From the NCBI GenBank assembly GCA_000165345.1, contig CM000436.1, forward strand, positions 224,001-288,000: a stretch of 64,000 nt of DNA, read 5' to 3'. The position numbers and the translations under genes were made by a program. Below, one piece after another: positions 1,256 through 53,030 of the stretch (the stretch's first letter is position 1; each line of letters opens with the position of its first letter). Below the pieces are notes generated by a model, which worked only from the letters and a program-made list of their open reading frames with translations, was not told where the DNA came from and made no database searches.

Positions 1256-4200
1256 ATGGCAAGCTCTATCCAAAAGGGACATTTACCTATATCAACATCT
1301 TCATCATCATCTTCATCATTAACAACAACTTCTTCATCAATTCCTGCTTCAAACACAGGAGGAACAGTCAATGTGGGGCGGGGTGAAACAGAGGAATTTG
1401 TACATTTTTTGTTTAGGGAAGGTTTCCTTGTAAAGGGTTCGCGCATGGAAAGCTATGATTTTCATTCAATTACTCCTTCTCTCTCATATCTCATCCAAAA
1501 AAACTTTGAAAATCCTGCGAATGGATGCCACACAATAATTTCTACTCATTCATCATTGGCTCTCAAAAGACAAAATCATTCAACCCAAAGTAAAAACTTT
1601 AATTTAATTCCAAAGCCTGATAATAAGGACGAAAACATTGATGGAAACTCACAAAAGATTTCTACTTTACCAGTATCTAAGCCTTTAAATGCTGAAACTC
1701 CAAAACAATTTAAAGATTGGCGCGCACATGATATCGGTATTGGATTTTTACTATATGGAGAGTCAGTATGTTTCGTTTTGGCGCGCATGATAGAATTGAC
1801 ATATGGGAGAGTTGCAAATAATGGAGTTGTAACATGCTGTGTGTTGAGCCCAAATTCGAATTGCTCGGAGGATGAGTCTCAACACTTTTCAGAAGGAAAT
1901 TTAACAAAGCCATCGTTGAATACTGATACTGAATTGAAGGATGGTGAGACTTGCATTAATAGAAGAATAACAAAATACGGAATAGTAGCAGGCTCTCCTA
2001 TTGGAATTCCTGGAAACATGTTTATTTTGAATCCATATTTGGAGGTTGGAGAAATCAAGACTATAATAGAAATAGAAATTATGAGTGCTAGCAGTATAAA
2101 GCAAGTTTTTGCTTGCAGGCCAGATCTTGTTGAGCTTGGAATGACCAATTTTGAGTTGTCAACCAAAACTCCATGCTTTTTATTGGCAGTAAAATGCAGC
2201 ATTGATCTAACACTACCGATTTATGTTTATAAAAGAAATCTTGAGTCAAATTATTGTTCATTGAGAGTAGCAAAAGAGGGTAGTATGGTTGTTGGTAAGG
2301 ACTTTCAAACTTCAATAGAGACTTTGATGAGTCTTTATACATGGTTGAAGAGTCACTTGCTTAATCCCAAATCTCCATTTTTTGACTTAGATTATGGGAA
2401 GTTTTACTATACTAGAGCATTAGAATTGCTTTCTAATATTGAATATATTATAAGAGTTTCAGGAGGAACTGAAAAAACAATTTCTACTCTTGGAGGGAAT
2501 ATCAATTTAAACGATGTGGGATTAGGTATTTGCGGTGGAGGAAGTGGATTCTCAAGACACTTAGGGATTTCGAAGCTTGGAACTCCTAATTCAAGATGCT
2601 CAATTTCAACAGTTGCTTCTACAAATACTCCTGTAAGCATTGGAGAAGTTCAGGGTGATTTGATTACTACGAATAATAACTTATGTTTAGGAGGAGGGCT
2701 TTTATCGGTAGGAGGAACTGGAGGAGGTACACCTGTTCAAGGAGGAATTACTGGAAATCCTGGGCCCCAAGAACCTTCTATGACTGAGAAAGTCTTTAAT
2801 AGTAGTAGTAACAACGATAATAATCCTCCCTCTGTTTCAGGTAGAGGTAAAAGAAGTAATGTTAAATTTACCAATACAACAACTCCAGGACAAAATTCCT
2901 CTTCTACTATTAGTACACTAGTTCCTGGTACAATTGTTAGATTTAGATCCCAAATTCCAGTTGATGCTAAGCTTATTCAAGGCGTTCCTGAGACTGATTA
3001 CTTTACCCACGTACAACAAGTCTATTACCATTTCCAAAAAGGAGAATGGAGAGCTGTATATGGTCCCTCAAAAAACAGACAACAGAAATCATTTTCTGTT
3101 AACAAGTATGGATTTTACGAAGCTAAACGACTTGCTGAAGAATGGAGACTTCGTTATCTTTATTCAAATCCAAATGGACCAAATGGACAACAGAATGGCG
3201 CCTTTGGTAAATGCATGCGATGCGGAAATGGCGCGGCGGGAAATTCTGGTTCATGCGGACGTTCTACATGCGTAAAGTCAAGTGTGGAGTGTGTTTGTAA
3301 ATATAATTCTAATGGTATATATGAGGATAACCGTGGTTCTGGAGGAGGTGCAAGATGTAGAACTGGGAGGAAGCGAAGGTCATCTAGGGTAGATATGGAG
3401 AGGGAGGCAAACGGAGCAACGACTGCAGGAGGGCTTGTTGTAACTTCTATGCCAGGTTGCATTCCTACGAAAGTATTAAATAAGGGCAGTGGTGTATGTA
3501 ATTTGAAAGATGTAAATAACTACACACCGAAAGTTGGAGAGGTATTGAACGAGATTTCGACAATTTCCACAGGAAATTGCCATAGCACTAGTGGTACAGG
3601 GGGGGGGAAAGGAGGAGTTTCCGAGACAATGATCACAATAGAATCGAGGTCTCCAAGGGTTGTATCTCAGAATGGAGAAGGAGAAGGAAGAGCTGGATTA
3701 GTGGAAAATTCTGTGTATTCCACAATGGATGGGATGATAGCATTTGGTAATGCAGAATTTTCAGCTTCTGTTACTGATCAGAAGCCATGCCCTGGAAAAA
3801 TTCCCATAGTTTCAAGCCAATCTCCAAAAAACAAGTCTATTTTGCATCCTTCCATTTCTGGAGTTAGTTTTGTGGGTCCTGAGCCAGGATTTAAAGATCA
3901 TCCTATACAACAGAAGATTTTGGATATATCAGCTTCTTCTACTGCCTCTACTACTCCATCAAGTACCCCAGGAGGATTAGCTGGAACGTGTATTTCACTA
4001 GGTGGTTTGGGGTATGATCAAGTTCAAAAGTCTTTTGAAAGTGATGAGTTACTAAATAATTCATCATATGGAGGAGTTGGAGTATCTGTAGCTACTGCTG
4101 CATGCGGAGGAGTTAGAACTACGGGTACTTCAAAGTTGGCTTCATCTCCATCAATTGGACAGATAATTTCCTCAGCAAGTTCTACTGCAACATCATCTTC

Positions 4201-5284
4201 TACTTCTATGATGATTCCAGAAATTTCTTCTCCCTCAGTTTCAACTCCTGTTTCTATTGGAGTTGGTTCTTGTTCAACCATTATTTCTCCAGAAAAACAA
4301 TCATTAATTGGGGTTGGAACAGTGGTTTCTGGCATGATGCATTCAATTTCCGAAACTCCCTATTCAGTTGCTCCAGGTTCTTCAAGAGAAGGAATTACTT
4401 ACTCAGTTAAATCAGGTTTGGTTGGGTTAGGAAAATCAGGAAAGACTCAATCTTCGCCTTCATCATCATCATCATCGTCATCTTCTGCATCTTCATCTTC
4501 ACAGGGAAATGGAATATCATCAAAAGGGCCAATAATGTTTACACAATCAACTCAAGGAATTTCCATGGGATTTCCAGCATCGGGAAATACTTATTCTGGA
4601 CAATTTCCCAATGCTATAGGAATTTCAGAATCTTCTTATGGGTGTATTTCTCCAGTTATTGAAGATAATTGTTGGAGTTCTTCTGCAAACAATGAAGCAA
4701 TGACTTCTTCATCTATGAATACTAATTCCAATTTAGTTAGTTCCGTTGGCAAGTCAAACAATAATACTAATATTGGTGGAACTATCTCTACATCCGCTAC
4801 ATCTAATTCTAATAACAATGCTACTATCGGTACTAGAAGTGTTAATAACGGCTCTACTGTTAATAATAATGCAGTTCCAATACTGAAAACTAATGAAAAT
4901 GTAATTAGTACTAACACTTCTCAAAGCAATGAGAGTTTAAGTATTGGAGGAGGTTGCCTCACAACGGGAACTTCTGGAGAAAGTAGTAATACAAATTGTT
5001 TGAGTACATCTGGAACAGAAAATATTTCGACTTCAGTTGTTGGATCTAGAAGACCTATTGAAGAATGCTCGAGTAATCATAACGAAGATAACTCTAATAG
5101 GAACAAAAGTAGAAATAACAGTGAAAATGAGAGATCAGTTAATGGTGGAAGCATAAATGTAAATAATGAGAACTCAGATCGGAGAAATGTTAGTTCTGAT
5201 GTGAACCGTAACAATGGAAACCCATGGTACAAAAGAAATGCATGGGATGAAGACCTTATAATAGATTCATTCTTTGTTGGGTAA
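1256..5284 (+). CDS. ApiAP2-domain DNA-binding protein, large and Ser/Thr/Asn-rich. ORF track starts at TTG 1247; first ATG is 1256.
   Basis: A single 1343-codon ORF. Residues encoded at about 2975-3165 read GVPETDYFTHVQQVYYHFQKGEWRAVYGPSKNRQQKSFSVNKYGFYEAKRLAEEWRLRYL. This fits the ApiAP2 fold pattern (W.A.W....KSFSV.KYG...AKRLA.EYR), comparable to Plasmodium SIP2-type AP2 domains. A Cys-rich patch follows (CMRCGNGAAGNSGSCGRSTCVKSSVECVCKY). The rest is S/T/N low complexity, including (TCA)n at 4459-4501. Confidence 0.65.
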   Translation: MASSIQKGHLPISTSSSSSSSLTTTSSSIPASNTGGTVNVGRGETEEFVHFLFREGFLVKGSRMESYDFHSITPSLSYLIQKNFENPANGCHTIISTHSSLALKRQNHSTQSKNFNLIPKPDNKDENIDGNSQKISTLPVSKPLNAETPKQFKDWRAHDIGIGFLLYGESVCFVLARMIELTYGRVANNGVVTCCVLSPNSNCSEDESQHFSEGNLTKPSLNTDTELKDGETCINRRITKYGIVAGSPIGIPGNMFILNPYLEVGEIKTIIEIEIMSASSIKQVFACRPDLVELGMTNFELSTKTPCFLLAVKCSIDLTLPIYVYKRNLESNYCSLRVAKEGSMVVGKDFQTSIETLMSLYTWLKSHLLNPKSPFFDLDYGKFYYTRALELLSNIEYIIRVSGGTEKTISTLGGNINLNDVGLGICGGGSGFSRHLGISKLGTPNSRCSISTVASTNTPVSIGEVQGDLITTNNNLCLGGGLLSVGGTGGGTPVQGGITGNPGPQEPSMTEKVFNSSSNNDNNPPSVSGRGKRSNVKFTNTTTPGQNSSSTISTLVPGTIVRFRSQIPVDAKLIQGVPETDYFTHVQQVYYHFQKGEWRAVYGPSKNRQQKSFSVNKYGFYEAKRLAEEWRLRYLYSNPNGPNGQQNGAFGKCMRCGNGAAGNSGSCGRSTCVKSSVECVCKYNSNGIYEDNRGSGGGARCRTGRKRRSSRVDMEREANGATTAGGLVVTSMPGCIPTKVLNKGSGVCNLKDVNNYTPKVGEVLNEISTISTGNCHSTSGTGGGKGGVSETMITIESRSPRVVSQNGEGEGRAGLVENSVYSTMDGMIAFGNAEFSASVTDQKPCPGKIPIVSSQSPKNKSILHPSISGVSFVGPEPGFKDHPIQQKILDISASSTASTTPSSTPGGLAGTCISLGGLGYDQVQKSFESDELLNNSSYGGVGVSVATAACGGVRTTGTSKLASSPSIGQIISSASSTATSSSTSMMIPEISSPSVSTPVSIGVGSCSTIISPEKQSLIGVGTVVSGMMHSISETPYSVAPGSSREGITYSVKSGLVGLGKSGKTQSSPSSSSSSSSSASSSSQGNGISSKGPIMFTQSTQGISMGFPASGNTYSGQFPNAIGISESSYGCISPVIEDNCWSSSANNEAMTSSSMNTNSNLVSSVGKSNNNTNIGGTISTSATSNSNNNATIGTRSVNNGSTVNNNAVPILKTNENVISTNTSQSNESLSIGGGCLTTGTSGESSNTNCLSTSGTENISTSVVGSRRPIEECSSNHNEDNSNRNKSRNNSENERSVNGGSINVNNENSDRRNVSSDVNRNNGNPWYKRNAWDEDLIIDSFFVG

Positions 5285-12208: not shown

Positions 12209-12334
12209 TTACCGCCAAAACACGTCATTTACGGTATATAAAAGGCAAATATATTTATTTTCTCGCCACGTGTATAATTAACCGTCAAAAAAATATTTGA
12301 AATGATTTGCATGCATACATGCATACATGCGAAC
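12209..12334. promoter_or_regulatory. composite module: CCGCCAAAACACGTCATTTACGGTATATAAAAGG ... CGCCACGTGTATAATTAACCG ... TGCATGCATACATGCATACATGCG
   Basis: It lies in the intergenic region between two minus-strand genes (membrane protein and COPA), adjacent to the 5' end of the membrane-protein gene (ATG 11922). Confidence 0.4.
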
Positions 12335-12496
12335 AGTTTTATTATTAAACACTTTATGTGGAAAGATTAAACATTTATATTTAATTTATTTAAAAAGAGA
12401 TGAAAAAAGAAATAATGGGAATTGAATAGAGAATTATAAGATAAATAATAAATATTACAGTATGAGTAAGTTCTGAAGAAAATGTTTAAATGGTTA

Positions 12497-22658: not shown

Positions 22659-22822
22659 TTTTAAAATTACTATTTATCCTCTTCTAATTTTTAAATCATC
22701 ATTTCTTAATTATGCCAATTTAATTTCAAATAATTAATTCCTGAAAAAAATGAATAACACTTTAAATAGATATATTTTCTAACCTCTCTTATCTGCTTTT
22801 ATTTATTATTATTATATTATTA

Positions 22823-22933
22823 CGTGTACATGCACTCATGTGGACAAATTAACTTTTTTTTACATTATTTTGACAATAAAAAAATTCAAACATGTATACC
22901 GGAGTAGGCGCCAAACTACCACCGGTATATAAA
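22823..22933. promoter_or_regulatory. composite module: ACGTGTACATGCACTCATGTGGAC ... TATACCGGAGTAGGCGCCAAACTACCACCGGTATATAAA
   Basis: GCATGC-like, CATGTGGAC, E2F-like GGCGCCAAA and ACCGGTATATAA all within 110 bp. It lies about 130 bp upstream of the UTP6 ATG at 23061. Confidence 0.45.
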
Positions 22934-23060
22934 TTCAAAAAATATTGTCAAAAAAAAAAATCAAATTTTGACACGTCATCAATAATTAATTGTTAAAGAA
23001 ATTATTAGTTGGAAAATTTTTTGTCATTTTATTTTAAGTTAGAGTCTTTGGAGGTTAAAA

Positions 23061-31860: not shown

Positions 31861-32482
31861 TTTTTATTACTTTTTGCCAATGTTTTAATAGATTATGGTT
31901 TATTGGCTTGATATTTCCTTAATATAGAATGATTAGGGAGACTTCTTTTAAATTTAACTTTTATGATAGTTTTTTCCACTTATATTTACAAAAATTGTCT
32001 AAAATCAAACCTCTTCCATCCAACTCAGTAATTACTATAATGACAATAATAATTTATTGAATGGTTTTTCTTTAAAGAATTTCACCATAAAAATTTGATT
32101 ATTTTCAACTCGAATTCGAGATTGTTTATTTAATTAACTTTTCTTCTTGAGCTAAACACTTCCTCTTCTCTTCATTATTCAAAAAACTGTGAATCTAAAA
32201 TAAACCATTTTGTCTTAAATAATTAACTAAAGTTCTATCGTTTATAAATAATGCAAAATTTTTAAAAAATGCACACAAATTAAGTTGTCCACATGCAACA
32301 TTATTATATACCGGTATCAAAAAAATAACAATAATTTGCACGTAACTGCATGACTATTGTCCACATTGAAAAAAACTTTATAAATAAAAATAATGTAATC
32401 TAAAAAAAATTATAACTATAACTAAATTTAATGGGAATGAAAATATGATATTAAGTTAAATTAATTGTCTTAAATATAATAA

Positions 32483-32857
32483 TTATCTTCCTTGCTTTTG
32501 GAATACCCATTCTGTATTATCTAGAGGACATACATTTCTTGTTTTCAACCATCTAGATATACAGTGCAGGTGAAATGCATGATTACACTGTCCCCAAGTT
32601 ACTGTGCATTCCTCGCTTCTTTGAGCAGATCCTGTATTGGCTTGGCATTCTATGCATAAGTCCATAATATGATTCCTACATATTGCGCAGTTATCTACTA
32701 CAATATCCCATGACCAAAGTGCAACTGCATTCCATTTCTTTATTTCGAATCTTTTCTGACCAGGTTCTGTGTTTACTGAATTGTTAGCAGTATTATTTTC
32801 TTCAATTTTTTGATCAATCATCTCTTCATTAACTTGCTCACAGCTTCTTGTATCCAT
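32483..32857 (-). CDS. RBX1: RING-box protein RBX1/ROC1 (cullin-RING ligase subunit)
   Basis: [35 protein letters not shown]...[31 protein letters not shown] is the canonical RBX1 RING-H2 with an N-terminal extension. Confidence 0.9.
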
Positions 32858-38050: not shown

Positions 38051-38228
38051 ACTAATTAATAATTTTAATTATTAACTTTGTAACAATATTAATTGTTTAA
38101 GGAATTTTATTTATTTATTTACATATAAATATTTTATTTATTAATTTTTTTTCCACATTAATTAATTACATGAAAATTACGTGTTTAAATGCAAATTTGC
38201 AAATTATTTTTGTTTAATTGCAATACCG

Positions 38229-38268
38229 TTGCATGCATCCATGTGGATTGAATAGCCGGTATATAATT
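38229..38268. promoter_or_regulatory. TTGCATGCATCCATGTGGAT + AGCCGGTATATAAT, with TTGGCGCCAAAA at 38495-38506
   Basis: Upstream of the Chorein-N gene ATG at 38691. Confidence 0.4.
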
Positions 38269-38690
38269 TTTAGATCAAGAAATACTTTGTAAAGAAGGAA
38301 AAAATGACATAGAGTAGAATCACTTTAAGTATTGAAATGCGTATAGGGTATGGATTTGTTTTGTTTTTTTCTTCAAGTAAAAAAAAAAAAATGGGTTTTT
38401 TAATCCTTAAAAAATTTAATTTTCAACTATAGAAAAATATTAATTATAATTAGAGAAAATCCCCCAACCGCAAATTACAAAAAAAAAAATGTATTGGCGC
38501 CAAAAGCACACAAATACTAATTAGCAACTTTTTGTATAATTTAGACCAAATAAATAATTTGAGGATTGTGCTTAGTTGTTAGATGCCATAATTAGTATAA
38601 CTTTGAGAGCACAGTATACTTCTATGATCTAGCTCTAGCATCAAAAGGTTTCCTTTAAGAGATTTTAGATTGATATGCATTCAGTTCGAG

Positions 38691-41600
38691 ATGTCTTTAA
38701 GAGAACTGGTAGTGGGATCGACTCAGATGCTTGTGGAGAGTGTATTAAGGAGGATAAATGAAAATTTGCTGAATTACTTTATCAATTTGCCAGAAAGTAT
38801 TTGGTTGAGTGGGTTTTTAGACCAAGTAAATTTGAAAGATGTAATGTTAAATACAAGAGCGTTTTCCAATGAATGGTATTCTTTAGATATACCTTTCAGA
38901 CTTAAATATGGACATATAAGAAGAGCAAGTATCCAAGTTTTGTTAGCTCACTCAAAATTGGTGATGGAAGTTGAAGGGGTTGTATTAATTGTAGGCCCAA
39001 ATTTGGCTTATAAATCATACGAGGATGTGATAAGGAATTCAATGGACAATGTATTTGGGTTGGTTGAACTATTTAAGCATATCCAAACAATTAGATACAA
39101 CAATGATAGTTTTGAGGAAGGTTTAGGATCCCAAAAAGGGGAAGTTTCTGAGAATCTACTCAATATTAACTCGTCAAGTAAAGAAGGATTAAACGCACTT
39201 CTTAGATGGCTTTTTAGGTATGTTCCTGATTTGTCCCTTAGTATTAGAAATCTTTACATTCGCTATGAAGATGATGTGTTGGATACTTCTCATCCAATGT
39301 CAGCAGGAATTCATATTAATTCTGTGACTATTAATCCCGCTAGAAACTGTTGGGAATTTCAATGGCCAACTGAAGAGAAAGAACAAGTTGGATTTACTTC
39401 AAAGGGTAGCTCAGACTCTGAGACTGATCCAACCAATTTAGGTAAAACACAGCATCCTCTTTCAATTAATAATTCTAGTGCAGATCCAAGGGGTATTTTC
39501 AGTATTAAAGTTAAAGGTTTAAGCGCCTTTTGGGATGATGAATCTGCTCCATTTATTCCTATTTCATTGCTAGAGCAAACTGAAGCTTCAAATGATAAAT
39601 TTGGAGTATTTTCAGCAGTAACTATTGATGATATCCAGAATCTAGTCAACTCTAATCTACATTATCACACAAGGATTATTTCAAATCTTAATATTTCTGC
39701 TCAGTTTGGGTTTGTAAATCCTTTCATCCACAAGCTTTCTAACGAAAAAAGTCGTCAAAGCAATGATATCAGTGCTAATGGTAGTGATAATAGTAGTAGC
39801 AATAGTATGATTAATGGTAGTAACTTTGGACAAGGCTCTTCCTCTGAACCAATATCTTCTCAAGAATCCTCGTCTTCATCGTCATCTTCTACTTCCAAAA
39901 ATTCAACTGAAAATAATGGTTATATAGCAAAAGATTATTTGAACGATTACTATACTGGTTCTAATATTGCTACATTACTGAATATTAATATACAGAGTGG
40001 ATTTGAAATTAATGTTTATCCACAAATGATTCACGGACTTGTTAGATTCGTAACTCTCTATAATCAGTTTCAATTTTGGACACAAGTAAGGAGGTTTAGA
40101 CCAATTGAAAGGCCAGGAAGTGGTAAAACTCCTGCTGAAGTCAGAGCAATTTGTAGAGATTGGTGGATCTTTAGTCTTAAATATTACAGAAATATCAAAT
40201 ACAAAGACAACAAACAAAATAGTCTTAGAGATGAAATTAACTACAGGGTTGAAAGAAAAAAATATATCAAGATTATCAAAAAATGGAAATGGATCGAATT
40301 TATGATTACTGGCCAAAAACCTATTTTGAACTCTGGGACCATTATACACAGGACTGGTACTAATGAGTATAATGCATGCAAATTTGGCGGGATGAGTGGG
40401 CCCGCCGAATTTGGCAAGATGAATGAATATGCTAAAAGTATTGGAACTTCTATTTCATTTCTGGATTCGAATTTGAATGGTAATCCAAGTTTGTCATCAA
40501 TTCTCGGTCTAAGTTCTCTTATTATTAATCATTTGGGTGTATCTTTTAATTTAAGTAGATATTGGCAATACGATGTTGAAGTCTTACAAAAGGTATCAGA
40601 GAAAAGTGATGATATGAGATGTATATTAACTGTATTGCAACACCATTCTTATTGGGTGGTATCTCAATGGCATATTTTAGCAGAACGTGAGTTTGAAATT
40701 GAGTTTGCTTTATTTCAAAATAGTTCAACTATCCAAAAAAAGCAAAAAGGAGCTATGGATACATTTTCTAATGTAAACCATAATATGGATATCAAAACTA
40801 AGAATATCTTAACTTTACTAGCTTATGGCCTTCATATTCAGACTGATTCATCAGTTTGGGAGTTAATTAGTAAGTTAAGAGATAGTTATATTGATCTTAT
40901 TAGGAGAATAACGCAAGATGACTCTTTGAGTAACCGTATTAAAGAGAGTCTTCAATCTAAATCATCACTTTTGAGTGGAGGATCAGTTTTTGAATTTAAA
41001 CTAACTTCAGGAATTCCATCAACGGTACCGACACAAATATCTAATTTTATACAAGAAAATATTGAAAGACATCCTTATGTTATTTTTGGAACAGGAATCT
41101 TTAAGAAAAGTTTAATTGAAACTGATATTTTATCTGACTTCTTTGGTGTGGGGTTGAATTCTAAGTTACTAATGAAGAGACGAGATTGGCATGCAATCAG
41201 GCTTAGGTTACATTTATGGGGGAGGTTTTATGATGAATATTTTGAAGCCTTTCCATTAGCTATTTCAGAGACTTTAGAGATTAATCAATTAATGAACTTG
41301 AGCTACCACTTAGACTTCCAGCAAATGAACAAATTGTTTAGTATTTCAATGCAAAGTGATTCTTTATGTTTCTCAACTTTAGTTTCTTCTCAGGCTACAT
41401 CTTCAAATCCTATGGAAGATATTGATATGTCAATGGGAGTTACAAATGTGACTATGGCAAGACCAAAGAGTCAACAAATATCGATCATTGAAAGAGATCC
41501 AGAGTTTTCATTATCTTTGTCATCTTCTTCAACTAAACTTGAGAAATCTGAGGAGAATAGGAATGAAATGGATCATATTGGAAAGGATAATCATACAGAT

Positions 41601-44600
41601 AAGTCTGAAATCTATAATTTGTCTAAATCAGGTATCTCTATGAATCAATTAAATAAAGAATACGCAAGTATGGAGTCTAATGAGATGGTAGAGGAGGAAA
41701 GTATTATAAATAGTACATCTGTTAAAAAGAAATCATTCAAGTTTGAGAAAAAGTTACCATATGTCTTTAAAGATTCATCAAATGTTCCAGAATGGCTGAG
41801 TGATTTGGCAGGACCTGGAATTAGCCTTCCTAAGATCATTTCAAATAAAATTATTGGGATTTGTATTCCTAAATTTGAGGTTAATATTTGTCATTTGGTT
41901 AGTGACAGTAAAAAATCTACAGGAAATGGTAAATCTGGACCAAATAATGGTGAATCCAATGTAGAAACTACAGGATTTAGCCCGAATAATTCAAATAGGA
42001 TTGATGGAATCAAAAGAAGTTACCACTCATTAGCAAGATATTTTAGTAGAAATGCTCAGGATACTGGTAATAATACTATGGTAACGAGTGTATTTACTCC
42101 AAGAAAGCTTTTTGGGATTGTGATTACTGGCTTAGGATTTAATATGAGTACATGCACAAGCCTTAGAGTAAGTTCTTGCTTTAAGAGGATGGAGTTGATA
42201 GTTTGGAACTATAATGACAGTAACTTGATGAGAGATTTCATTTCCAGTATCAAGTCGGATAGGTCAGTAAACAAGAAAATGATCAGAGATGATCAAATTG
42301 TCATATTTTCAATGTCTGATGAAAGACAAAATACTAGTAATGAATCATCATCATCATCAAATTATGTACAAAATAAGGGAAATACTTTGGGTAGTAGTAT
42401 TACAACTGTATCCGGATCTATTTCTGTATCAGGATCAGGATCTGGATCTGGATCTGGATCAAGTTCAAGGTTAGAAGTTTTGGGAATAGGAATGGGTCAA
42501 ATGAATAACTTTCCCGAAAACCCTTCAATTGAAGGAGGAGTTGATGGAAATAAAGTCCAAACTCCAAATAGAAGAGGTTCTTCAAGCTTAAATGAATATG
42601 ATAGTTCTCCATCTTTAACTCATTATGTAGACGAAGCACATGGAGGTACATTTTCGTCATATATTGTTGGAAATGGACGACAAGGTGGTTTGACATCTTC
42701 AAAAAGTGTGAGATTTGAAGATTCAAGAGGAATAAGTACTAGTTCAACTTCATTAGGAAAGAATTCTTCAGTCATTTCAGCTTCTTCTGAATTAACTAAT
42801 GAATCAAGTTTTGGTAGTATTAGAAATGATAATAATAATACAACATCAGTATCGGTACCTAGTACTATGAATAATAATCAAACAAATAGTATTATAAGAT
42901 ATATGAGAAGATGGAATTACTTGAGTTTGGTGATGTTACCACCAAATAATTCGACTAATAAAGAAAGTAAAGGAGAAGTGAGAGGAAATGGAGAATCCAA
43001 TTTTTTAAGCTTTGTATTTAAGTTACCTTTTTATTTAAAGATGGATATTAATTTGACGCCTGTAACTATTGTACTTAACGAACAGCTTCTTGATAATATT
43101 CGTGGTGAAATTTTGAAATTAATTCAGGTATGTCTATTGACTATTTGGAGTCAGTATAAAGGACTTGGAGCATTTCCAGTTACTGATGGATTTAGAGAAT
43201 TATTAGTACAAGAAGTTAGTACTAGTGGTAGTGGTAATGGATTAGTAGAGAGTTCTCGAGAAGAGAATAACTTTGAATTACTTCTTTGCCACCCTTTTAA
43301 CTTATCATTAAACAAATATAATGCTATTAATAAGTTAAATAAAATAGAATGGAATAAGATTAATTCATTATTAAATAAAGTACATGTAAGGATTTCAATT
43401 AGGTTACCTTCAGTGGAGTTATTTATGTTAAATGAATCAATCGAATATTTCCGTCAAATGGATGATGATTTATTTATTGAAAGAAATTCAGATGAAAGAT
43501 TTGAAAATGTATCATTTGATTTATCAACATCTTTTAAACTTTCTGTTGAATCTCAAACTATTTTGATTGGGACAATTATTGATAAATTACGTGGGAATAT
43601 CAATAGATTATACTTTAGAGGCTTTCAAATGAAATTCGATACTCAACAAAATATAACTAGTATAATAAGGTTATATTTGAGATTCAAGAATTTAATTTCG
43701 GATAGATACGGTAATATTATTGCTATTATGAACTTATTCAAGGATTACAAATTTGATAATATCTCTAGACACTCTCTAACAAGTTTTACTGACGAGATCT
43801 TGAGGCTTCAATGCGAAAAATTACCTGATACTAACAATATCTTGCTTAAAGAATTTACTTTAAGCTTGGATGAAAAGTCAGGTACTAAAGTTGAAAGAGA
43901 TGAGAAGAAGTCAGTGGAAGTGGAAAAAGTGGGAATGGAAGCGGAGAGAGAGGTGGAAGCAGAGAGAGAGGTGGAAACAGAAAGGGAAGTGGAGACAGAA
44001 AAGACAATGAAAACAGAGAAAGAAATGGATGTGGAAAAGGAAATTGATATGAAAAAGGGAATAGATGTGAGAAAGAAGGTGGAACTGGATAGAGCAGTGG
44101 AGACAGAGGAAAAGAGAATGGGAACGGAGGAAAAAGGAATTGAATCGAAGAAAAAAGAGTCTATAGATTCTTTATCCAAACTTCCAAGGCAAGAATATTC
44201 TCAACACACTGTCCTAATTCAACCTACAGAGCCTATTCCTGCTCCAGTTATAACATCGTATCCATCTCCAACAGTATCTCCTTGTATTTCTCCAACAATT
44301 TCTCCAACACCTATTCCATCTACATTTGTATCTCCAGCATTTTCTGTATATTCTGCTCCAAATCATTCTCAATATCCTCTTCCAACACATATTCATACTT
44401 CTGATGTTACTAATTCAGTTTTGTCCGAAGCCATAACTAGAGCAATCCCAGTAACAACACCACATGAACAGGTAATTACTACTGTCGATAACACACAAAC
44501 ATATTCTGTTAGAGAGGTTAGAACAGAAGACAATGAAATTCGCCGTTCTTCTCAGTATAATAGTGCTAATGTGAAGCCAATAAACTTGCATGAAAACCAA

Positions 44601-45008
44601 ATAGGAACAGAAATTAACAATACAAATGGAAATTTTGAAACTAGAAGAAAGTCTAGCAACCTTATATTAATTAGAGACATTGAGACTCAGAGCCTTAAAG
44701 ATAAGAATGATAACCACAGTCTTACTATAGAAAAACAAGGAACAGAGGAAGAAAAAAGAAACTCAAATGACTATCATCACCTCCGCCTCCATCATCATAT
44801 TCCAACCAAAAACCAAGCAAATTTAGTTCCTCATATTGGTAAAGTATGCGAAGAAAAAGAATCTGAAATTCTTAACAGGGAATTTATACAAAGAAATAAC
44901 AACCATGAATATATTGAAACACAATCTTCACCTCATCAAAACACTAAGAAAATACAAAAAAAGAAGCCTCCAATATCTCTTAGGTCTGGCTTCAATTTTA
45001 ATAATTAA
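38691..45008 (+). CDS. Chorein-N domain bridge-like lipid-transfer protein (VPS13/ATG2 family), 2111 aa. ORF track start 38670 is TTG.
   Basis: The N-terminus MSLRELVVGSTQMLVESVLRRINENLLNYFINLPESIWLSGFLDQVNLKDVMLNTRAFSNEWYSLDIPFRLKYGHIRRASIQVLLAHSKLVMEVEGVVLIVGP fits the Chorein_N pattern (L..YL..L.....G.....L.N..L....L..P..V..G.I..L.I). It is a long, mostly non-repetitive body with a low-complexity C-terminal 400 aa. That tail includes a (GS)n run, EREVE tandem repeats and a P/S/T-rich stretch. Confidence 0.7.
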   Translation: MSLRELVVGSTQMLVESVLRRINENLLNYFINLPESIWLSGFLDQVNLKDVMLNTRAFSNEWYSLDIPFRLKYGHIRRASIQVLLAHSKLVMEVEGVVLIVGPNLAYKSYEDVIRNSMDNVFGLVELFKHIQTIRYNNDSFEEGLGSQKGEVSENLLNINSSSKEGLNALLRWLFRYVPDLSLSIRNLYIRYEDDVLDTSHPMSAGIHINSVTINPARNCWEFQWPTEEKEQVGFTSKGSSDSETDPTNLGKTQHPLSINNSSADPRGIFSIKVKGLSAFWDDESAPFIPISLLEQTEASNDKFGVFSAVTIDDIQNLVNSNLHYHTRIISNLNISAQFGFVNPFIHKLSNEKSRQSNDISANGSDNSSSNSMINGSNFGQGSSSEPISSQESSSSSSSSTSKNSTENNGYIAKDYLNDYYTGSNIATLLNINIQSGFEINVYPQMIHGLVRFVTLYNQFQFWTQVRRFRPIERPGSGKTPAEVRAICRDWWIFSLKYYRNIKYKDNKQNSLRDEINYRVERKKYIKIIKKWKWIEFMITGQKPILNSGTIIHRTGTNEYNACKFGGMSGPAEFGKMNEYAKSIGTSISFLDSNLNGNPSLSSILGLSSLIINHLGVSFNLSRYWQYDVEVLQKVSEKSDDMRCILTVLQHHSYWVVSQWHILAEREFEIEFALFQNSSTIQKKQKGAMDTFSNVNHNMDIKTKNILTLLAYGLHIQTDSSVWELISKLRDSYIDLIRRITQDDSLSNRIKESLQSKSSLLSGGSVFEFKLTSGIPSTVPTQISNFIQENIERHPYVIFGTGIFKKSLIETDILSDFFGVGLNSKLLMKRRDWHAIRLRLHLWGRFYDEYFEAFPLAISETLEINQLMNLSYHLDFQQMNKLFSISMQSDSLCFSTLVSSQATSSNPMEDIDMSMGVTNVTMARPKSQQISIIERDPEFSLSLSSSSTKLEKSEENRNEMDHIGKDNHTDKSEIYNLSKSGISMNQLNKEYASMESNEMVEEESIINSTSVKKKSFKFEKKLPYVFKDSSNVPEWLSDLAGPGISLPKIISNKIIGICIPKFEVNICHLVSDSKKSTGNGKSGPNNGESNVETTGFSPNNSNRIDGIKRSYHSLARYFSRNAQDTGNNTMVTSVFTPRKLFGIVITGLGFNMSTCTSLRVSSCFKRMELIVWNYNDSNLMRDFISSIKSDRSVNKKMIRDDQIVIFSMSDERQNTSNESSSSSNYVQNKGNTLGSSITTVSGSISVSGSGSGSGSGSSSRLEVLGIGMGQMNNFPENPSIEGGVDGNKVQTPNRRGSSSLNEYDSSPSLTHYVDEAHGGTFSSYIVGNGRQGGLTSSKSVRFEDSRGISTSSTSLGKNSSVISASSELTNESSFGSIRNDNNNTTSVSVPSTMNNNQTNSIIRYMRRWNYLSLVMLPPNNSTNKESKGEVRGNGESNFLSFVFKLPFYLKMDINLTPVTIVLNEQLLDNIRGEILKLIQVCLLTIWSQYKGLGAFPVTDGFRELLVQEVSTSGSGNGLVESSREENNFELLLCHPFNLSLNKYNAINKLNKIEWNKINSLLNKVHVRISIRLPSVELFMLNESIEYFRQMDDDLFIERNSDERFENVSFDLSTSFKLSVESQTILIGTIIDKLRGNINRLYFRGFQMKFDTQQNITSIIRLYLRFKNLISDRYGNIIAIMNLFKDYKFDNISRHSLTSFTDEILRLQCEKLPDTNNILLKEFTLSLDEKSGTKVERDEKKSVEVEKVGMEAEREVEAEREVETEREVETEKTMKTEKEMDVEKEIDMKKGIDVRKKVELDRAVETEEKRMGTEEKGIESKKKESIDSLSKLPRQEYSQHTVLIQPTEPIPAPVITSYPSPTVSPCISPTISPTPIPSTFVSPAFSVYSAPNHSQYPLPTHIHTSDVTNSVLSEAITRAIPVTTPHEQVITTVDNTQTYSVREVRTEDNEIRRSSQYNSANVKPINLHENQIGTEINNTNGNFETRRKSSNLILIRDIETQSLKDKNDNHSLTIEKQGTEEEKRNSNDYHHLRLHHHIPTKNQANLVPHIGKVCEEKESEILNREFIQRNNNHEYIETQSSPHQNTKKIQKKKPPISLRSGFNFNN
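42432..42461 (+). repeat. (GGATCT)n coding microsatellite giving (GS)n
   Basis: ggatcaggatctggatctggatctggatca. Confidence 0.9.
43938..44060 (+). repeat. imperfect 18-bp coding tandem repeat (GAAGCRGAGAGAGAGGTG)n encoding (EAEREV)n within the Chorein-N gene
   Basis: Units at 43938, 43956, 43974, 43992 and 44010 read as EAEREVEAEREVETEREVETEKTMKTEKEM. Confidence 0.8.
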
Positions 45009-46070: not shown

Positions 46071-46613
46071 GTTTATAATGGAAGGAATTGGATAAAGAAA
46101 TTGTATATGGGAAAGAAAAAAAATTATGAAAACATAAGAAGTAACTATTTTCACTATAATATTTTTTTTATCCATCCTTTCGTATTCAAAAAAAAACTAT
46201 TATCATTTTAATTATCTAATTTACTATTTTTATTGCTATATAATTTATTTGTGTAGATTTTCAGGAAATGTTAATTAATAGATTTAATTGTCTTTAAGTC
46301 TCGAATTTAAGTCAAAATAGAATTTTTCTTTTTTTGGAGGGAATTTTCTGAATGATATTATTTTGAAATATAATGTTAAATACAGATTGCTTGAATAATT
46401 AGCTGAATAAGATTTTCTATTATTGCTAATAATATTACTGTTACCAATTTGTTAGTATAATTTTCTGACTTCCGGGTTTGTATTGAATAATTTGGCTCCA
46501 AATAAAATCTACAAATTTCAAGCAATACTTACTTGTGATAAGGGTGGTATTAAATTTAGTACCAAAATATATAGGGGAGAAAAAAAAAGGACGGAAGAAT
46601 ATTATACATTATA

Positions 46614-49600
46614 ATGCAAAGTGATTTTCAGTATAAAGATCTTTTGACAGTTTTTAACATTCCAATTTCACTTTGGGTACAAAATGGGACTCATTTATTT
46701 CATAAGAATACTTCAACTTTGGTTGATAAAAATGGTAAAAGACTTTGTATTAAGGTAAGTTAAAAGGTGAAATTAATAAAATTAAATATTATATTATTAA
46801 TAAAATAAATTGATATATAGTGTATTATTGATATGTTTAAAAATAACCAAAAATCAAGTACATATTTATCACAGATTTGTGAAGATTTGATGTTGGTAAG
46901 TTAAAATAGATTAATAAAATTCATTTTCATTAAAAAAAAAAAAAAAAAAATTCAGATGATAAAATGTGAGAGAGGTAAAGGAGTTGTAAGATTTATTATA
47001 AGTGAGATTTTGGGAAATGAAAGTAATTTCATTATTGAAGAAATTAATAAAGTTGACGTAAGTTTTTGAAGTATATTTAAAAAATTATTAATGAAATAAT
47101 AAAAATAATATAATTTAAATGATAAATTTAATAATTAGGATGAAATGTTACTTAATAATCTTATAAATTTGAAGTTAACATTATTAAACAAACATTTTTC
47201 AATATCAGAAAATAAACAAAGACAAAAATTAAATGAAAATATATTAAATATAATAATTAAAAGTGTAAGTAAATTGTAATAAATATTTTATTATAAATAT
47301 TGATTTAATATAATTAATTTAACAAATAATTTTAGATGAATAATTTGAATATAAGAATGAGATCAATGGCAAAATTAATATATATACTATTTGATGATAG
47401 ACTTTCAATATACTCGAATAGTTTAATAGATAGAATAGTGGAAGATACAAAAAATCTATCAAGCTTTGGAAAGATGATTTTGAGAATGGACATAGAGAAT
47501 ATTCAATATTTAATTCCTATAATAGTTAAATTAATAGAATGCAATCCTGAGAAAGTAATAAATAATTTATTGATTGATAAAGGACTACATTTATCAAGAT
47601 TATTATGTGAAGTTACGGATAAGAAGATTTATTTTGAATATATTTTAGAGTTTTATTTACATATATTAAATAACTATCCAAATCAATTTGGAAATTTATT
47701 AATAGATAACAGTAATAGATTGGATATAAAAAGTAATAATAGTAAAGAAGAGTTATCTTTGAACATTTTAGTCGGAATAGAAAAGATGGCAATAATTCTA
47801 GCAAGATCAAGTAAATACTCTAAAAGCAATAATTATCATTCATCCAGAAACTTGGATATTGATAAATTTCAAGATACAGAATTTTCAATGAGTGACTTGG
47901 AATACATGCAGCAGGGAGGTTCTATTCCCAAGATGGGTAATTTTTTAATTAATAATTCTATGAATGAAAATAATATATTAGAGGAGATGGGAGAGCATGG
48001 TGAAAGGAGTTTGAGGATGAATATAAGCAATAGTAGTATTGGAAGTAGCATTATGAACATGAATAATAATCACATAAGTTATGGAAGAAAGGATTTTATG
48101 GAAATAAATGAATTGGAAGAAAAGAAAGTTGTTGATGGAATTAATATGTTTGGATTATTGAGAAATAGGGAAGAAGATGATAATAGATTAATGAAGAAAT
48201 TGATTCAATTTTTTAAAGGTTTTATGCTATATAAAAATAAAATGGAATTATTTTGGAATTCTGATAAAGAAAAGATAGATTTAGAAGATGATGAAGTAGA
48301 TTCAAATATAGATAATAACTGCAAAAAAAACAGATGGATTATGGAAGGAGAGTGTTTTGAAGTTGTTCATAAAATAATTGAATGGATAATAGAATTACTA
48401 AGAAATAGTATAGAAGTTGAATTAGATAACTTAGCTTTAGATTGTATTTTGCAAGTATTCACACAAGAAAAGTGCTGTAATTATGAGGAAGAGAAATCAG
48501 AAGCTGATGAAGAGCTTTCAGACCTTAATATAAATCAAAAAGATAATGATAATAATAAAAACAATTTATTGGAAAAAAATTCCGCAAATATAGAATTAAT
48601 AAATGAAGATAAATCGGAAGATTTTATTTTTAATATGAAACCTTTAAATATGAAATCCAAAAGAGTAACTTTCAAAAGAATTGAAGAAATTCCACCAAAA
48701 AAAAAATTAATAACTTTTAATGATGTGGATAAAAATAAATTACGTGTAAATGCATGCAAGCAAGGCGGGTCAAAATGTGACAATAATACCGGTATAGAAC
48801 AAAATAAATCATGTGGAAAATTATGTTTTCACCAGATTTTTGTAATAAAACATGGCCAGTATTTGTTGGATATTTTTTTAGAACTTTTTGATGATTATTT
48901 AAGAAAATTTGGATTAAATTTTATAAGAAGAAAGAGTGGAAATGCAAAGAGTTTATCATTTTATGACCAAAGTTACAAATATATAATCGATAATGAGCAG
49001 CAGATTGAGGAGGTATTATATAAAATAATTCAGGGAATAAATAATATTTCAGATGGGGTTGCTATTCAATCATGTCCTAGACAGATATTTGCAATAAGTT
49101 GGTTTATGGAATTTATTTTATACGGTTTTTCGAATGAGGAATCTGTATTAAAAAGTAAGCCACCAGTTCCTTTGTATGGTTCATCAAGTATGGATTTAGT
49201 AATGAAAGCTGCTAATATGGATCAACCATTGGAGCATGCACTATTAAGTATTTCTACAAAATTTAGTGAGGAAAGTAATCAAAATAATGAAGAAGTGAAT
49301 CAAATTCAAAAAGGATTAATTAATCAGATTGATACTATAAATCAGGTTCAAGTAGAAGTTGTTAACAAATTAATCTCTCTAACAGAAAGGATGTGTAAAT
49401 GTTTGTATAGCAAGGGTAAAAGAAACTCTAAATTAGAAGGTGAACATTTTAATGGAAGCTTTTATCAAGTGGATATCAAAAAGTTATGGAAACTTAATGG
49501 TACAGTTTACAGTAGGGATCTGCTACTAGAATATTTTTCAAATATCCTCCAAATTACAGAAAAGTTATTCGGTTTTAAAGGTGTTAAAGTTATTCAATTC

Positions 49601-52600
49601 TTAGATTCTACTGATAAGTTATTTGAATTTTATACCCGAGAATTAAAAAATAAGGAACGGAATATAGTTTGTTTGTCCCAACTATACTTAATTCAGCATA
49701 TTTTTGATACAAACTTAACAAGTGAATACGAGGTAAAAGATTCTTTAACTAAAAATAAAGATCCTCAAGCAAATTTAGTATTTAATATTTTTTCTATAGT
49801 ACTTCAAATTGATAAGAGAATTCAAGATAATCTTGAAGATTTGGATGAAGTAAATGACCAAATTCTGCAAAAGGCAGATAGCAAAATTAAGCTATTAATT
49901 AATAATAAGGTTGGAGCTCAGCTAATATTCCAATGGATTAAAAATCCTAATATTGGCGATCAAGAAATTTATGGAATTAAAACTAACATTTTAATAAGAT
50001 GGATAATTCACATTTCTAAACAATTATTACATCCAATTATGAATGAAAATGAGATTAGTAGCAGATTAAAGTATTTAACCAAAGAAAGGATTAAAGCTTC
50101 CTTGCTACTAGACGACTCTGCTTCAAACGATACAATTTCTATTGTAATTTCTCTTTTAACATTTTGTTATGGCTATTTTCCAGATCAAGTTATTCTATTC
50201 ATTTTAAAAAATATTAATCGAGAAGAAATTCAGGATCTTGAATATCCAGGAATATGTAATATTTCTGAAGATATTGCTCAAAAGATTAATAATTATGGAA
50301 AATCATCTGCTTTTGGAAATCTTTCCAATACAAGAAATATCCCAACTAGAGTACTTCTTTATTATTCATCCATACTTTTGGATAATACCAGTAGAAATGG
50401 TAAAAAGAATATTGATTTATTTCAAGATTATTCCTTCCAAAAAGACAAAATTGTTGCTAAGATTATTTCCATATTAGTTAATTCAAATTTAAGACGTAGA
50501 GAATGGCTACTTTGGCATTCAAAAAATTTTGACAAAATTGAACTTTTTTCAAATTCATTACATAATCTTATTCAATCAAGAGGAGAAATAGGAAACTATC
50601 AAGAACAGAAAAAAATTGAAGAGCAAATCTTTAAATGGATCTATGATCGAAATATCGATTATTCAAGATATCAGGTCAGTTCTAGACCTTTTTCAATATC
50701 TTCTTTTTACTTTGGATTGGTTGATTTCTCAATTTCCCCTATTTTAGAGAAATCTATATTGCAAAATGTATCATTTATTAAGTTTCAGATCAAACAATTA
50801 CTAAATCTTAGCTCTATAAAACCCAACACTTGTACTGAATATGAACTTGAGGATTTCATTCAAAAGCTAAGTATGAACTTGAATTTGTTCATCTTTTCAA
50901 TTCAAAGTTATATCGAAAGAAACGATCAACTTAATTTTGCTGATATACTTACTATTGAAGAAGTTACTTTACCTTTAAAACTATTTTTAAATATTAATAG
51001 TGATGAATTTGATTTCAGATTTAAGGCAATTATTGGCCATTTAACTTTAAAATTCATTTCAGTTTTCTTTAAGCCAAGCTGGAGAGAGTCAAACTTTCAA
51101 GAATTAAATAAATCGAATCCGTCCTCACAAGTATTTGGAATTAAAACTTTTACAAGTCTTGATAACTTTGGAAAAAGTTCAAACAGAAAAACTTCAAGTT
51201 TATTATTTATTCTAGTAAATCTGATGGATGAATTAACAAAGTGGTAAGTTTTTTAAATATACTAATTTAATCAAATAGACGAATATATCTTTATATTTGT
51301 ATATACTTTTTTTAATTATTTTTTACCTTCAGGATGAATGAAATTTTCAATATGAACAACTTTGACAAGTTTTATGTATCTGCCTATTTAGAAACGTTTT
51401 CAAGTTTGGTTTTGGAATTAGGAATTAGAGATAACATCCTTTCTCAAAGTATGGATATCGGATCAGGAGGTGAAAAAGGAGAAATATTTAAACTCAAGAT
51501 AAGGCAATCACTAATCAATTTAGTTCAAAGTGACTCTACTGTTTCTTTAATAGAGAAGATATTAAACTATATCATTATTTGCAGAAGAAAAGGTAACAAT
51601 TTGGATGCGGACAAATCAAGTTGTTTAATGGGTATCTCCATATTACTACTTTCCATGTTATCAAGTAAAATCAAAATATTCAGAACTAATGGAAGATTAG
51701 AGAGTCTTATTGATTCTATTTTAGCTCATCCAACATTGTTATTTCATGCTGAAAAAAGCTCAAAATGTGGATTAAATTCTCGCTTTTCGTCTGATGAATA
51801 TGATAATTCGCTTATAGATAACAATACAACGAGTTTCAATCTATGTAACTATTGTCTTAATTTTGGCTTCAATCATAACATAGAAGATATTAAATTAATA
51901 ACCAATGTTTCTATTATTGTGGCATTGCTACGTCTAAATCATGTAAATAGTAGAGCAATATCAAAAAGTAACTTAATTAAAGATATTTTTCTACAAAGCA
52001 TTTCAGGGATTTTAAATACAAATAATAAAGCATCATCAGTAAGTCATGGATATATGGGAATTATATTATCGTCAATATATTTATCATATGACCAAATTCA
52101 GTCTTTGAGCCTTGTACATAATTTGTATATTCAAAAATTCCTTGTAAAGGAGTTTGTTTGTGATGTTTTAAACTTTGACAAGAATCCAGTTGAAAATTTA
52201 AATCTTTCTCCATGTATGATATTTCATTATTCTGTATTATTTTCATATTTGGTTTTTATATTGAAGACTACTCCTTGGTGGCTTAATATTTCTGATTTGA
52301 TCAATCTAACATTCATAAATAAACTTGGAAAGATTTATAAATCATTACAAACTTCCGCAATTATTTATAATGATGAGAATGACAATATTGGAGAATATTT
52401 AATTAGCTTGACAGAGATTCTTTTAAAAATTGTACAAGAAACAATAATGGCTCGCTCTAACTCATCTTCTAGTTATATTCAAGGTAAGTTAATTTCTGAA
52501 TAATTGAAATATATATAGAGCGTGTTTTAAAATATTTGATTAACTTTTTCTTTCTGATTAAGATGAAAAAAACAATGCAGAAAATAACGGAGTAATTATT

Positions 52601-52959: not shown

Positions 52960-53030
52960 TTGCAAGTGGACAAATGCATGCAATGCAAATGCATGCATGT
53001 GCATGTATTTGCATTATGACATCCAAGCCT
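52960..53030. promoter_or_regulatory. dense GCATGC cluster (GTGGACAAATGCATGCAATGCAAATGCATGCATGTGCATGTATTTGCAT)
   Basis: Five overlapping GCATGC/ATGCAT palindromes lie in the 250-bp gap between the large-gene stop (52886) and the Rad21 ATG (53138). Confidence 0.4.

Follow-up and report, generated by a model that had tools for sequence, protein, structure and literature searches.

Introduction

Exonic transcription-factor sites under synonymous constraint, known as duons, occur in other eukaryotes, and so do intragenic and alternative promoters. In the present study, we analyzed a cluster of promoter-type words that lies at positions 48722-48817 of a 64-kb window, inside a coding exon of a large gene (46617-52503). 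The window is the whole stretch of DNA analyzed, 64,000 nucleotides (nt) of Cryptosporidium parvum Iowa II chromosome 8 (assembly GCA_000165345.1, contig CM000436.1, positions 224,001 to 288,000), and all coordinates refer to it. Like duons as they are generally understood, this module consists of codons that spell factor words, with reduced synonymous divergence and non-preferred codons at the site. It differs from them in being a dense module of several putative sites that mirrors a whole promoter architecture and in belonging to a 9-Mb genome with intergenic spacers of 300-600 bp.

In C. parvum, the motifs reported as over-represented upstream of genes are AP2_1 (BGCATGCAH / TGCATGCA), E2F-like (TTTGGCGGGAAV, DTTGSCGCCH; GGCGGG/GGCGCC) and G-box-like (DTGTGGGG) motifs (Oberstaller et al., 2013, PMC3734150; review, PMC12246861). 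The AP2_1-type palindrome is the binding site of the ApiAP2 proteins cgd2_3490 and cgd1_3520, and the motif work covered intergenic upstream sequence, with coding regions deliberately excluded (PMC4117751). The module shares with this upstream set exact AP2_1 and E2F cores and the ATGTGGA words. However, it is located about 2.1 kb inside a gene, in translated codons, whereas the known motifs are intergenic, and its TTACGTG and CCGGTATA words are not in the published C. parvum motif tables examined. In addition, monocistronic transcripts from inside C. parvum polycistrons have been reported, with an enrichment of E2F motifs at the internal boundaries (Xiao et al., 2025, PMC11761812). Those units are downstream transcripts inside longer units and start in untranslated spacers between open reading frames (ORFs), whereas the module lies within one continuous translated ORF. 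The module may relate to these internal transcripts; the gene that hosts it is not mentioned in the main text of that paper (PMC11761812). Our literature searches on the host-gene identifiers and on intragenic start sites in Cryptosporidium returned nothing relevant, and no description of the CCGGTA-type element, CCGGTATA or TTACGTG was found in the Cryptosporidium literature searched.

Results and Discussion

The Exonic Module and Its Promoter-Type Words

Our results suggest a double use of positions 48722-48817, as coding exon and as a cis-regulatory module; its most plausible function is that of an internal promoter in sense orientation, a reading toward which the balance of the evidence tips slightly. 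Because related species keep the cluster at the DNA level, silent positions included, the codons of the module are likely to have a second, regulatory role, perhaps as an internal promoter. The module and its parts are the following:

48722-48817, plus strand: whole motif module in the exon, reading ATGTGGA .. TTACGTG .. ATGCATGCA .. GGCGGG .. ATACCGGTATAGAA .. CATGTGGA over about 95 bp
48722-48729, plus strand: ATGTGGAT word, upstream copy, which resembles the G-box-like family DTGTGGGG
48740-48746, plus strand: TTACGTG, which includes the rare Arg codon CGT
48750-48758, unstranded: ATGCATGCA, an AP2_1-type palindrome with its TGCATGCA core at 48751
48764-48769, plus strand: GGCGGG, an E2F/DP-type core made of two rare Gly codons, GGC GGG
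48786-48798, plus strand: ATACCGGTATAGA, the CCGGTATA element, which in true promoters reads CCGGTATATA(A/T)
48810-48817, plus strand: CATGTGGA word, downstream copy, with a TGTGG core that encodes Cys-Gly
48701-48795, plus strand: zone of suppressed synonymous change in the codon alignment, where the codon periodicity of conservation is lost

The DNA and the translation quoted in the original prediction for this segment were exact. The words start at 48742 (ACGTG), 48751 (TGCATGCA), 48764 (GGCGGG), 48788 (ACCGGTATA) and 48810 (CATGTGGA), to which we add an ATGTGGA at 48723 that the original list lacked, and all of them sit within the uninterrupted ORF 47336-51247. The module is 1.4 kb from the start of its exon and 2.1 kb from the first ATG of the gene, and lacks the defining feature of the known C. 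parvum promoter clusters, a position in intergenic DNA upstream of a start codon. The AP2_1 and E2F cores at 48751 and 48764 match the consensus exactly (consensus as in PMC3734150), and the E2F core lacks the usual T-rich flank. Both ATGTGGA words, TTACGTG and CCGGTATA are sense-oriented, just as most promoters of the window have these words pointing toward the gene that follows.

The words are largely promoter-specific in this window, 72% of which consists of ORFs of at least 200 amino acids (aa). The numbers of sites inside ORFs were 1 of 9 for CCGGTA, 2 of 12 for GGCGCC, 2 of 8 for TGCATGCA and 2 of 9 for CATGTGG, a depletion with P values from 1e-4 to 7e-3, and ACGTG was also depleted (8 of 23). 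The exception was GGCGGG, with 6 of its 11 sites inside ORFs (P 0.16). The nine CCGGTA sites, eight of which are outside ORFs, include 149, 8866, 17615, 22922, 32311 (minus strand), 38256 and 59571 (minus strand). In four promoters (17615, 22922, 32311 and 38256) the site reads CCGGTATATA(A/T), which looks like a composite TATA-type core element.

A count of three or more of the five word classes within 100 nt was reached at four places in the window and nowhere in 300 second-order Markov shuffles. The module is the sole site with all five classes within that distance. The other three places (22822, 32289 and 38179) are all promoters and share its architecture:

22820-22935, plus strand: promoter module upstream of a UTP6-like gene (ATG 23061)
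38152-38275, plus strand: promoter module upstream of the gene for a 2112-aa protein (ATG 38676)
32288-32370, minus strand: promoter module upstream of the UDP-glucose dehydrogenase gene (ATG 31860, minus strand)

Common to the exonic module and these promoters are ATGTGGA, TTACGTG, (A)TGCATGCA, sometimes an E2F core, (A/G)(C/T)CGGTATATAA and CATGTGGA. The resemblance to 22823-22933 that had been proposed for the module is borne out, TTACGTGTA being found at only two positions of the window, 22820 and 48740. A second proposed resemblance, to 12209-12334, proved looser, with the variants ACGGTATATAA, GGCGGT and TATGTGGA at that place. As a positive control, identical words formed invariant footprints in the promoters of the EF-hand gene and the 2112-aa gene in the same species; in the promoter at 38152, TTGCATGCAT..ATGTGGA..G(C/T)CGGTATATAATTT(T/G)TAGATC was unchanged across six species. 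The pattern of the module, in which words stand as conserved footprints among variable spacers, matches that of these two promoters.

Two further observations concern the neighboring promoters. A small coding segment for a RING-H2 (Rbx1-like) protein ends just upstream of the 32.3-kb promoter module (approximately 32490-32620, minus strand); its length falls below the 200-aa limit of the ORF list. Upstream of a Rad21/Rec8 gene, tandem or overlapping TGCATGCA copies at 52975-52997 are kept in every species examined, including C. ryanae.

Codon Choice and Synonymous Constraint

The words could have been ordinary coding sequence, that is, chance by-products of a conserved peptide (LRVNAC..GG..TGIE..SCGK) under protein constraint and shared ancestry. 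The aa patches beneath the words are indeed conserved in the clade of species described below, Cys-Gly suffices to give CATGTGGA at 48810, and the comparison spans six lineages. However, the words are written with rare codons, namely CGT (6% of Arg), GGC and GGG (8 and 10% of Gly), ACC (9% of Thr) and GTG (12% of Val), and the joint usage probability of the rare codons needed is about 2e-6. When the whole ORF was redrawn 3000 times with synonymous codons sampled from the codon usage of the window, the five word classes came together in none of the 3000 re-samplings, and the 84-nt module segment reached at most three classes. This spelling in rare codons and the re-sampling result indicate that the protein sequence does not by itself account for the words. 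In addition, silent sites in the module are conserved like replacement sites (0.81 vs. 0.79), the module is an extreme outlier among about 5,000 codons, and the words persist while amino acids change; the species without the words also lack the peptide. We therefore consider an origin of the cluster as ordinary coding sequence very unlikely.

Synonymous change was measured in a codon alignment of C. parvum with the orthologous loci of C. hominis, C. meleagridis, Cryptosporidium chipmunk genotype I, C. ubiquitum, C. canis, a Cryptosporidium species here called Logan (SRR31860986) and C. ryanae. The first six of these and C. parvum are referred to as the intestinal clade of seven species. Over the 28 codons at 48713-48791, the ratio of observed to expected synonymous change was 0.33, ranking first of 1370 exon windows, and 10 of 5000 column permutations gave a ratio as low; a 15-codon permutation test of the module was marginal (275 of 5000). 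In four control ORFs from these loci the minima ranged from 0.52 to 0.72, all above the module, which showed the lowest synonymous change among the roughly 5,000 codons tested. Third-position identity was 0.81 in the module and 0.58 gene-wide (z 4.2, the top of the gene). It equaled the identity at first and second positions (0.79), so the codon periodicity of conservation is gone. Between C. parvum and the most distant member of the clade, third-position identity was 0.78 in the module vs. 0.43 gene-wide, and aa identity in the module was 0.56, slightly under the average of the gene.

These values also bear on the protein encoded here, which had been described as low-complexity and poorly constrained. 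Within the clade, aa identity was 0.64 for the segment vs. 0.68 gene-wide, which does not fit poor constraint; what stands of the description is that the segment is a variable linker, missing in distant species. Conservation of the segment as protein, which the original prediction had listed among the observations that would count against it, is formally present within the clade and is better explained by constraint at the DNA level.

Synonymous constraint is also what a conserved cluster of rare codons would produce, if it slowed translation of the linker that precedes the next helical domain and aided co-translational folding, and the rare codons CGT, TGC, GGC, GGG, ACC and GTG are concentrated in the linker just upstream of a conserved helical block. 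An AlphaFold2 model of codons 331-720 (mean predicted local distance difference test score 33) was uninformative apart from a hint of a non-helical stretch before a helix starting CFHQ. A pause site, however, needs rarity and not identity, whereas the exact word-spelling codons are kept here and common codons (AAT, AAA, TTA) are frozen as much as rare ones. Moreover, amino acid replacements re-create the words instead of preserving rarity, and the word set shared with promoters would be left unexplained. A translational pause site is highly improbable on these grounds.

Conservation of the Words Among Species

All seven clade species have the CCGGTA word, and the silent positions of ACC and GGT are kept with it. 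In the Logan species Thr is replaced by Ala (ACC GGT to GCC GGT), and CCGGTA is still intact. GGC GGG was unchanged in six clade species; in C. canis the amino acids differ and the word is the other E2F core, GGCGCC. Apart from C. canis, where one further CCCGCC occurs near the window equivalent of 49325, the module holds the only E2F-type (GGCGSS) word of the exon of about 3.9 kb in each species, and it holds the only CCGGTA words of the exon in all seven. TGCATGCA was found in six of the seven species and was lost in chipmunk genotype I. In C. meleagridis, the copy seen in C. parvum is lost (A to S) and an overlapping copy shifted by 4 nt is retained (K to M), while both overlapping copies are present in C. 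ubiquitum and the Logan species. TTACGTG was kept in five of the seven species. Its loss elsewhere goes with a change of Arg to Ser or Cys, suggesting that the Arg residue itself is unconstrained. TGTGGA of the upstream ATGTGGAT was present in six of the seven species, and its Val codon GTG was invariant.

Across the 11-12 kb compared at each orthologous locus, the words were confined to intergenic promoters and the module, save for isolated TGCATGCA, TTACGTG or CCCGCC words. The module was absent in C. ryanae and in two more distant homologs (P0008 and P0009). Thus, the cluster arose in the intestinal clade or was retained only by it. The view that the coding exon contains promoter-type regulatory DNA is supported by the spelling in rare codons, the conservation of synonymous sites, and the retention of words through turnover in seven species. 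As in DNA that serves coding and regulation at the same time, the codons of the module are translated, its synonymous sites are constrained, and its codon choice is bent to spell the sites.

The Host Gene and Its Reading Frame

The locus was identified by the 389-aa ORF 51334-52503, which is identical to XP_627008.1 of C. parvum Iowa II chromosome 8. A 1303-aa Iowa II entry, XP_627007.1, belongs to the same protein cluster and equals ORF 47336-51247 in length. In the telomere-to-telomere annotation, the joined host gene is cpbgf_8001020 (1744 aa). The genome is compact, with about 30% G+C. The gene is arranged as follows:

46617-52503, plus strand: host gene, with 5' mini-exons from 46617, main exon 47336-51243, intron 51244-51332 and a 3' exon to 52503

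The 89-nt intron 51244-51332 joins the 1303-codon exon to the 3' exon in ortholog models of 1744-1949 aa, and the 5' mini-exons from 46617 are joined to the main exon in the C. ubiquitum and C. ryanae models. The ortholog models of 1947-1949 aa and the conserved in-frame mini-exons indicate a single gene at 46617-52503. Its intron is in phase 2 (GTAAGT...TTCAG) and splits a Trp codon. Older annotations split the gene into a 109-aa gene (CPATCC_0001030 type), the 1303-aa ORF and the 389-aa ORF. No domain of the host protein was found in Pfam and no relative by a profile search of PDB, and the homologs retrieved by an exhaustive phmmer search against 1.8 billion representatives were all from Cryptosporidium. 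By these sequence searches, the protein is Cryptosporidium-restricted.

The original prediction had offered, as one of its two readings, that the gene model is two genes separated by an open spacer, in which the module would be the promoter. The location of the module in a variable linker is compatible with this, and older annotations do fragment the gene, at other places. However, the frame is continuous in all 10 Cryptosporidium sequences, including the three without the module, every indel is a multiple of three, and invariant blocks abut the module on both sides (KSKRVTFKR upstream and CFHQIFVIKHGQYLLD downstream). Furthermore, a conserved block of codons 497-590, starting with C497, follows the module, and no in-frame ATG occurs between the module and codon 591, a run of 95 codons. 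Since there is no in-frame ATG before codon 591, the C497 block is translated only through the module. The two-gene reading was rejected on this evidence, and we regard its probability as next to nil.

Synonymous constraint alone fits any overlapping function, and an RNA-level element (a structured mRNA motif, an embedded non-coding RNA, an alternative intron or an overlapping ORF) would account for it as well. The candidates of this kind were rejected. The minimum free energy of the stretch was -10.4 kcal/mol vs. a shuffle mean of -16.1 (z +1.95), the RNAalifold covariation term was +0.25 with one pair showing a compensatory change, and no Rfam family was found over the stretch at E < 0.39. 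The alternative frames of the plus strand are closed, and antisense ORFs are short, without an ATG (TTG start) or broken in C. hominis. The GTAAAT at 48745 is not a conserved donor, and the candidate intron lengths are not multiples of three. An RNA-level function is extremely improbable given these results.

Three other features of the locus were observed. The upstream region of the host gene itself (46290-46616) contained zero promoter words in five species. At 46255-46315, the EF-hand gene has a near-invariant block in five species (TAGATTTAATTGTCTTTAAGTCTCGAATTTAAGTC), made up of its final coding bases and the first approximately 40 nt past its stop codon; this block is far more conserved than the remaining intergenic DNA and might mark a 3' end or contribute to the promoter of the large gene. 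Within the main exon, an extra TGCATGCA (LECMQ, TGC ATG CAA) is found at 47903 in C. hominis, C. meleagridis, C. ubiquitum and C. canis; C. parvum has lost it, with codons that read LEYMQ and TAT in place of TGC.

Possible Functions: Internal Promoter, Docking Element or Antisense Promoter

As the upstream region of the host gene lacks the words, the module may be the main factor-binding platform of the gene, an internal sense promoter, or an antisense promoter. We favor the internal sense promoter. In this model, 48722-48817, which encodes a variable linker of a large Cryptosporidium-specific protein, would double as a cis-regulatory module composed of the ApiAP2-type TGCATGCA, the E2F/DP-type GGCGGG, TTACGTG, the CCGGTATA element and the ATGTGGA words. 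Selection in the clade acts, on this view, on the DNA words, fixing rare codons and silent positions and tolerating amino acid replacements that keep or re-create the words. The most likely mode of action is that transcription factors bind the module and nucleate an intragenic promoter; initiation there would proceed in the sense direction, and the resulting transcript would lack the 5' end and cover the 3' two-thirds of the gene. The core element resembles that of the neighboring genes in one part: CCGGTAT is conserved in the exon as in their CCGGTATATAA element, and the TATA part is degenerate.

Several points weigh against this model. The word set was picked from the module itself, after the module had been seen, and the species compared are phylogenetically related and represent six independent lineages. 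The TATA part of the CCGGTATA element varies in the exon (TATAGAA, TATTGAA, TAAAGAA), whereas real promoters have an invariant TATATAA; in the reading frame of the module, TATATAA would make a stop codon. At 48810, only the TGTGG core (Cys-Gly) of CATGTGGA is kept, and since the silent positions vary (TCA/TCG/TTA; GGA/GGG/GGT), this word is without DNA-level constraint beyond Cys-Gly. The rule of sense orientation breaks at the promoter 12209-12360, which lies between two minus-strand genes and whose ACGGTATATAA and ATGTGGA words face the plus strand, away from the sole adjacent start (11922, minus strand); either orientation is not strictly kept in promoters, or the annotation misses a plus-strand transcript that begins there. 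An internal mRNA would also translate poorly, because its first in-frame ATG (49106, the invariant M591) is 290 nt downstream, has T at -3 and comes after eight out-of-frame ATGs. A shorter protein isoform made from the module, which the original prediction had proposed together with a shorter 3' transcript, is unlikely. Finally, when open chromatin of sporozoites was mapped by an assay of transposase-accessible chromatin, E2F motifs were detected in it and AP2 motifs were not, and 888 of the 984 peaks were upstream of genes (PMC11761812).

Some of the same observations would be expected if the module were an intragenic factor-docking or enhancer-type element without a start site of its own, binding E2F/DP and ApiAP2 factors and regulating the host gene or a neighboring gene. 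The absence of words upstream of the host gene, the unconserved TATA part in the exon and the apparent lack of a plausible translatable ORF downstream all favor such an element, and conservation at the DNA level fits it equally. However, no distal or downstream enhancer in Cryptosporidium was found in the literature located, and the module copies a whole promoter architecture, beyond activator sites. We consider a docking element unlikely.

Alternatively, the module might drive a long non-coding RNA (lncRNA), antisense or bidirectional, that overlaps the 5' portion of the gene. Antisense transcripts are known for about 10% of C. parvum genes, and the annotated lncRNAs are mostly antisense (PMC12246861, PMC7840661). 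In the module, TGCATGCA and ACCGGT are palindromic and E2F sites work in both orientations; at 12209-12360, the oriented words face away from the only neighboring gene. Nevertheless, both ATGTGGA words, TTACGTG and CCGGTATA point in the sense direction in the exon. The CPATCC identifiers of the gene were not found in the searched part of the supplements of the lncRNA paper, which is a weak negative. Taken together, an antisense promoter is quite unlikely.

Other Clusters Within ORFs

Two further word clusters were located inside ORFs of the window:

40353-40434, in ORF 38676-45008 (2112-aa gene): AATGCATGCAAATTTGGCGGGATGAGTGGGCCCGCCGAATTT, with an AP2_1 site and two inverted E2F cores
3190-3290, in ORF 1247-5284 (ApiAP2 gene, AP2 domain at aa 592-637), just 3' of the domain: AATGGCGCCTTTGGTAAATGCATGCGATGCGGAAATGGCGCGGCGGGAAATTC, with TGGCGCC, ATGCATGC and GGCGGGAAA

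The cluster at 40353-40434 gives the peptide NACKFGG, read in the frame that yields NACKQGG in the 48.7-kb module. Its TGCATGCA was found in five of six species, and at least one E2F-type word was present in five of six, with turnover among GGCGGG, CCCGCC, GGCGCG and TTTGGCGCCA; in three species, ACCGGTAC occurs 30 nt upstream of the cluster. Its synonymous ratio of 0.65 was the second-lowest in the 2112-aa gene, and because this value falls within the control-gene minima (0.52-0.72), the cluster is not independently significant. The peptide at 3190-3290 is Cys/Gly-rich, so the protein could drive that cluster. The two clusters hint at generality. It is conceivable, though we hold it doubtful, that long Cryptosporidium genes routinely carry conserved internal promoter modules in permissive linkers, giving 3' sub-transcripts or regulatory RNAs, and that the grammar of these modules includes an undescribed core, CCGGTATATA(A/T), often beside TGCATGCA and ATGTGGA.

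Conclusion

Gene regulation in Cryptosporidium is poorly understood, and this locus provides a clean comparative case of regulatory words maintained in a translated exon. The words themselves come from the known upstream repertoire of C. parvum, and what sets them apart here is their location within a coding exon, where keeping them costs the use of rare codons and constrains the linker. Should the module initiate transcription, promoters would be hidden within ORFs of a compact parasite genome. This would bear on gene models, on the interpretation of RNA sequencing data, on the design of knock-ins and knock-outs, and on internal transcripts that have no accessible upstream regions. If internal modules are general, they would add an extra layer to the internal monocistron transcription reported in this parasite.

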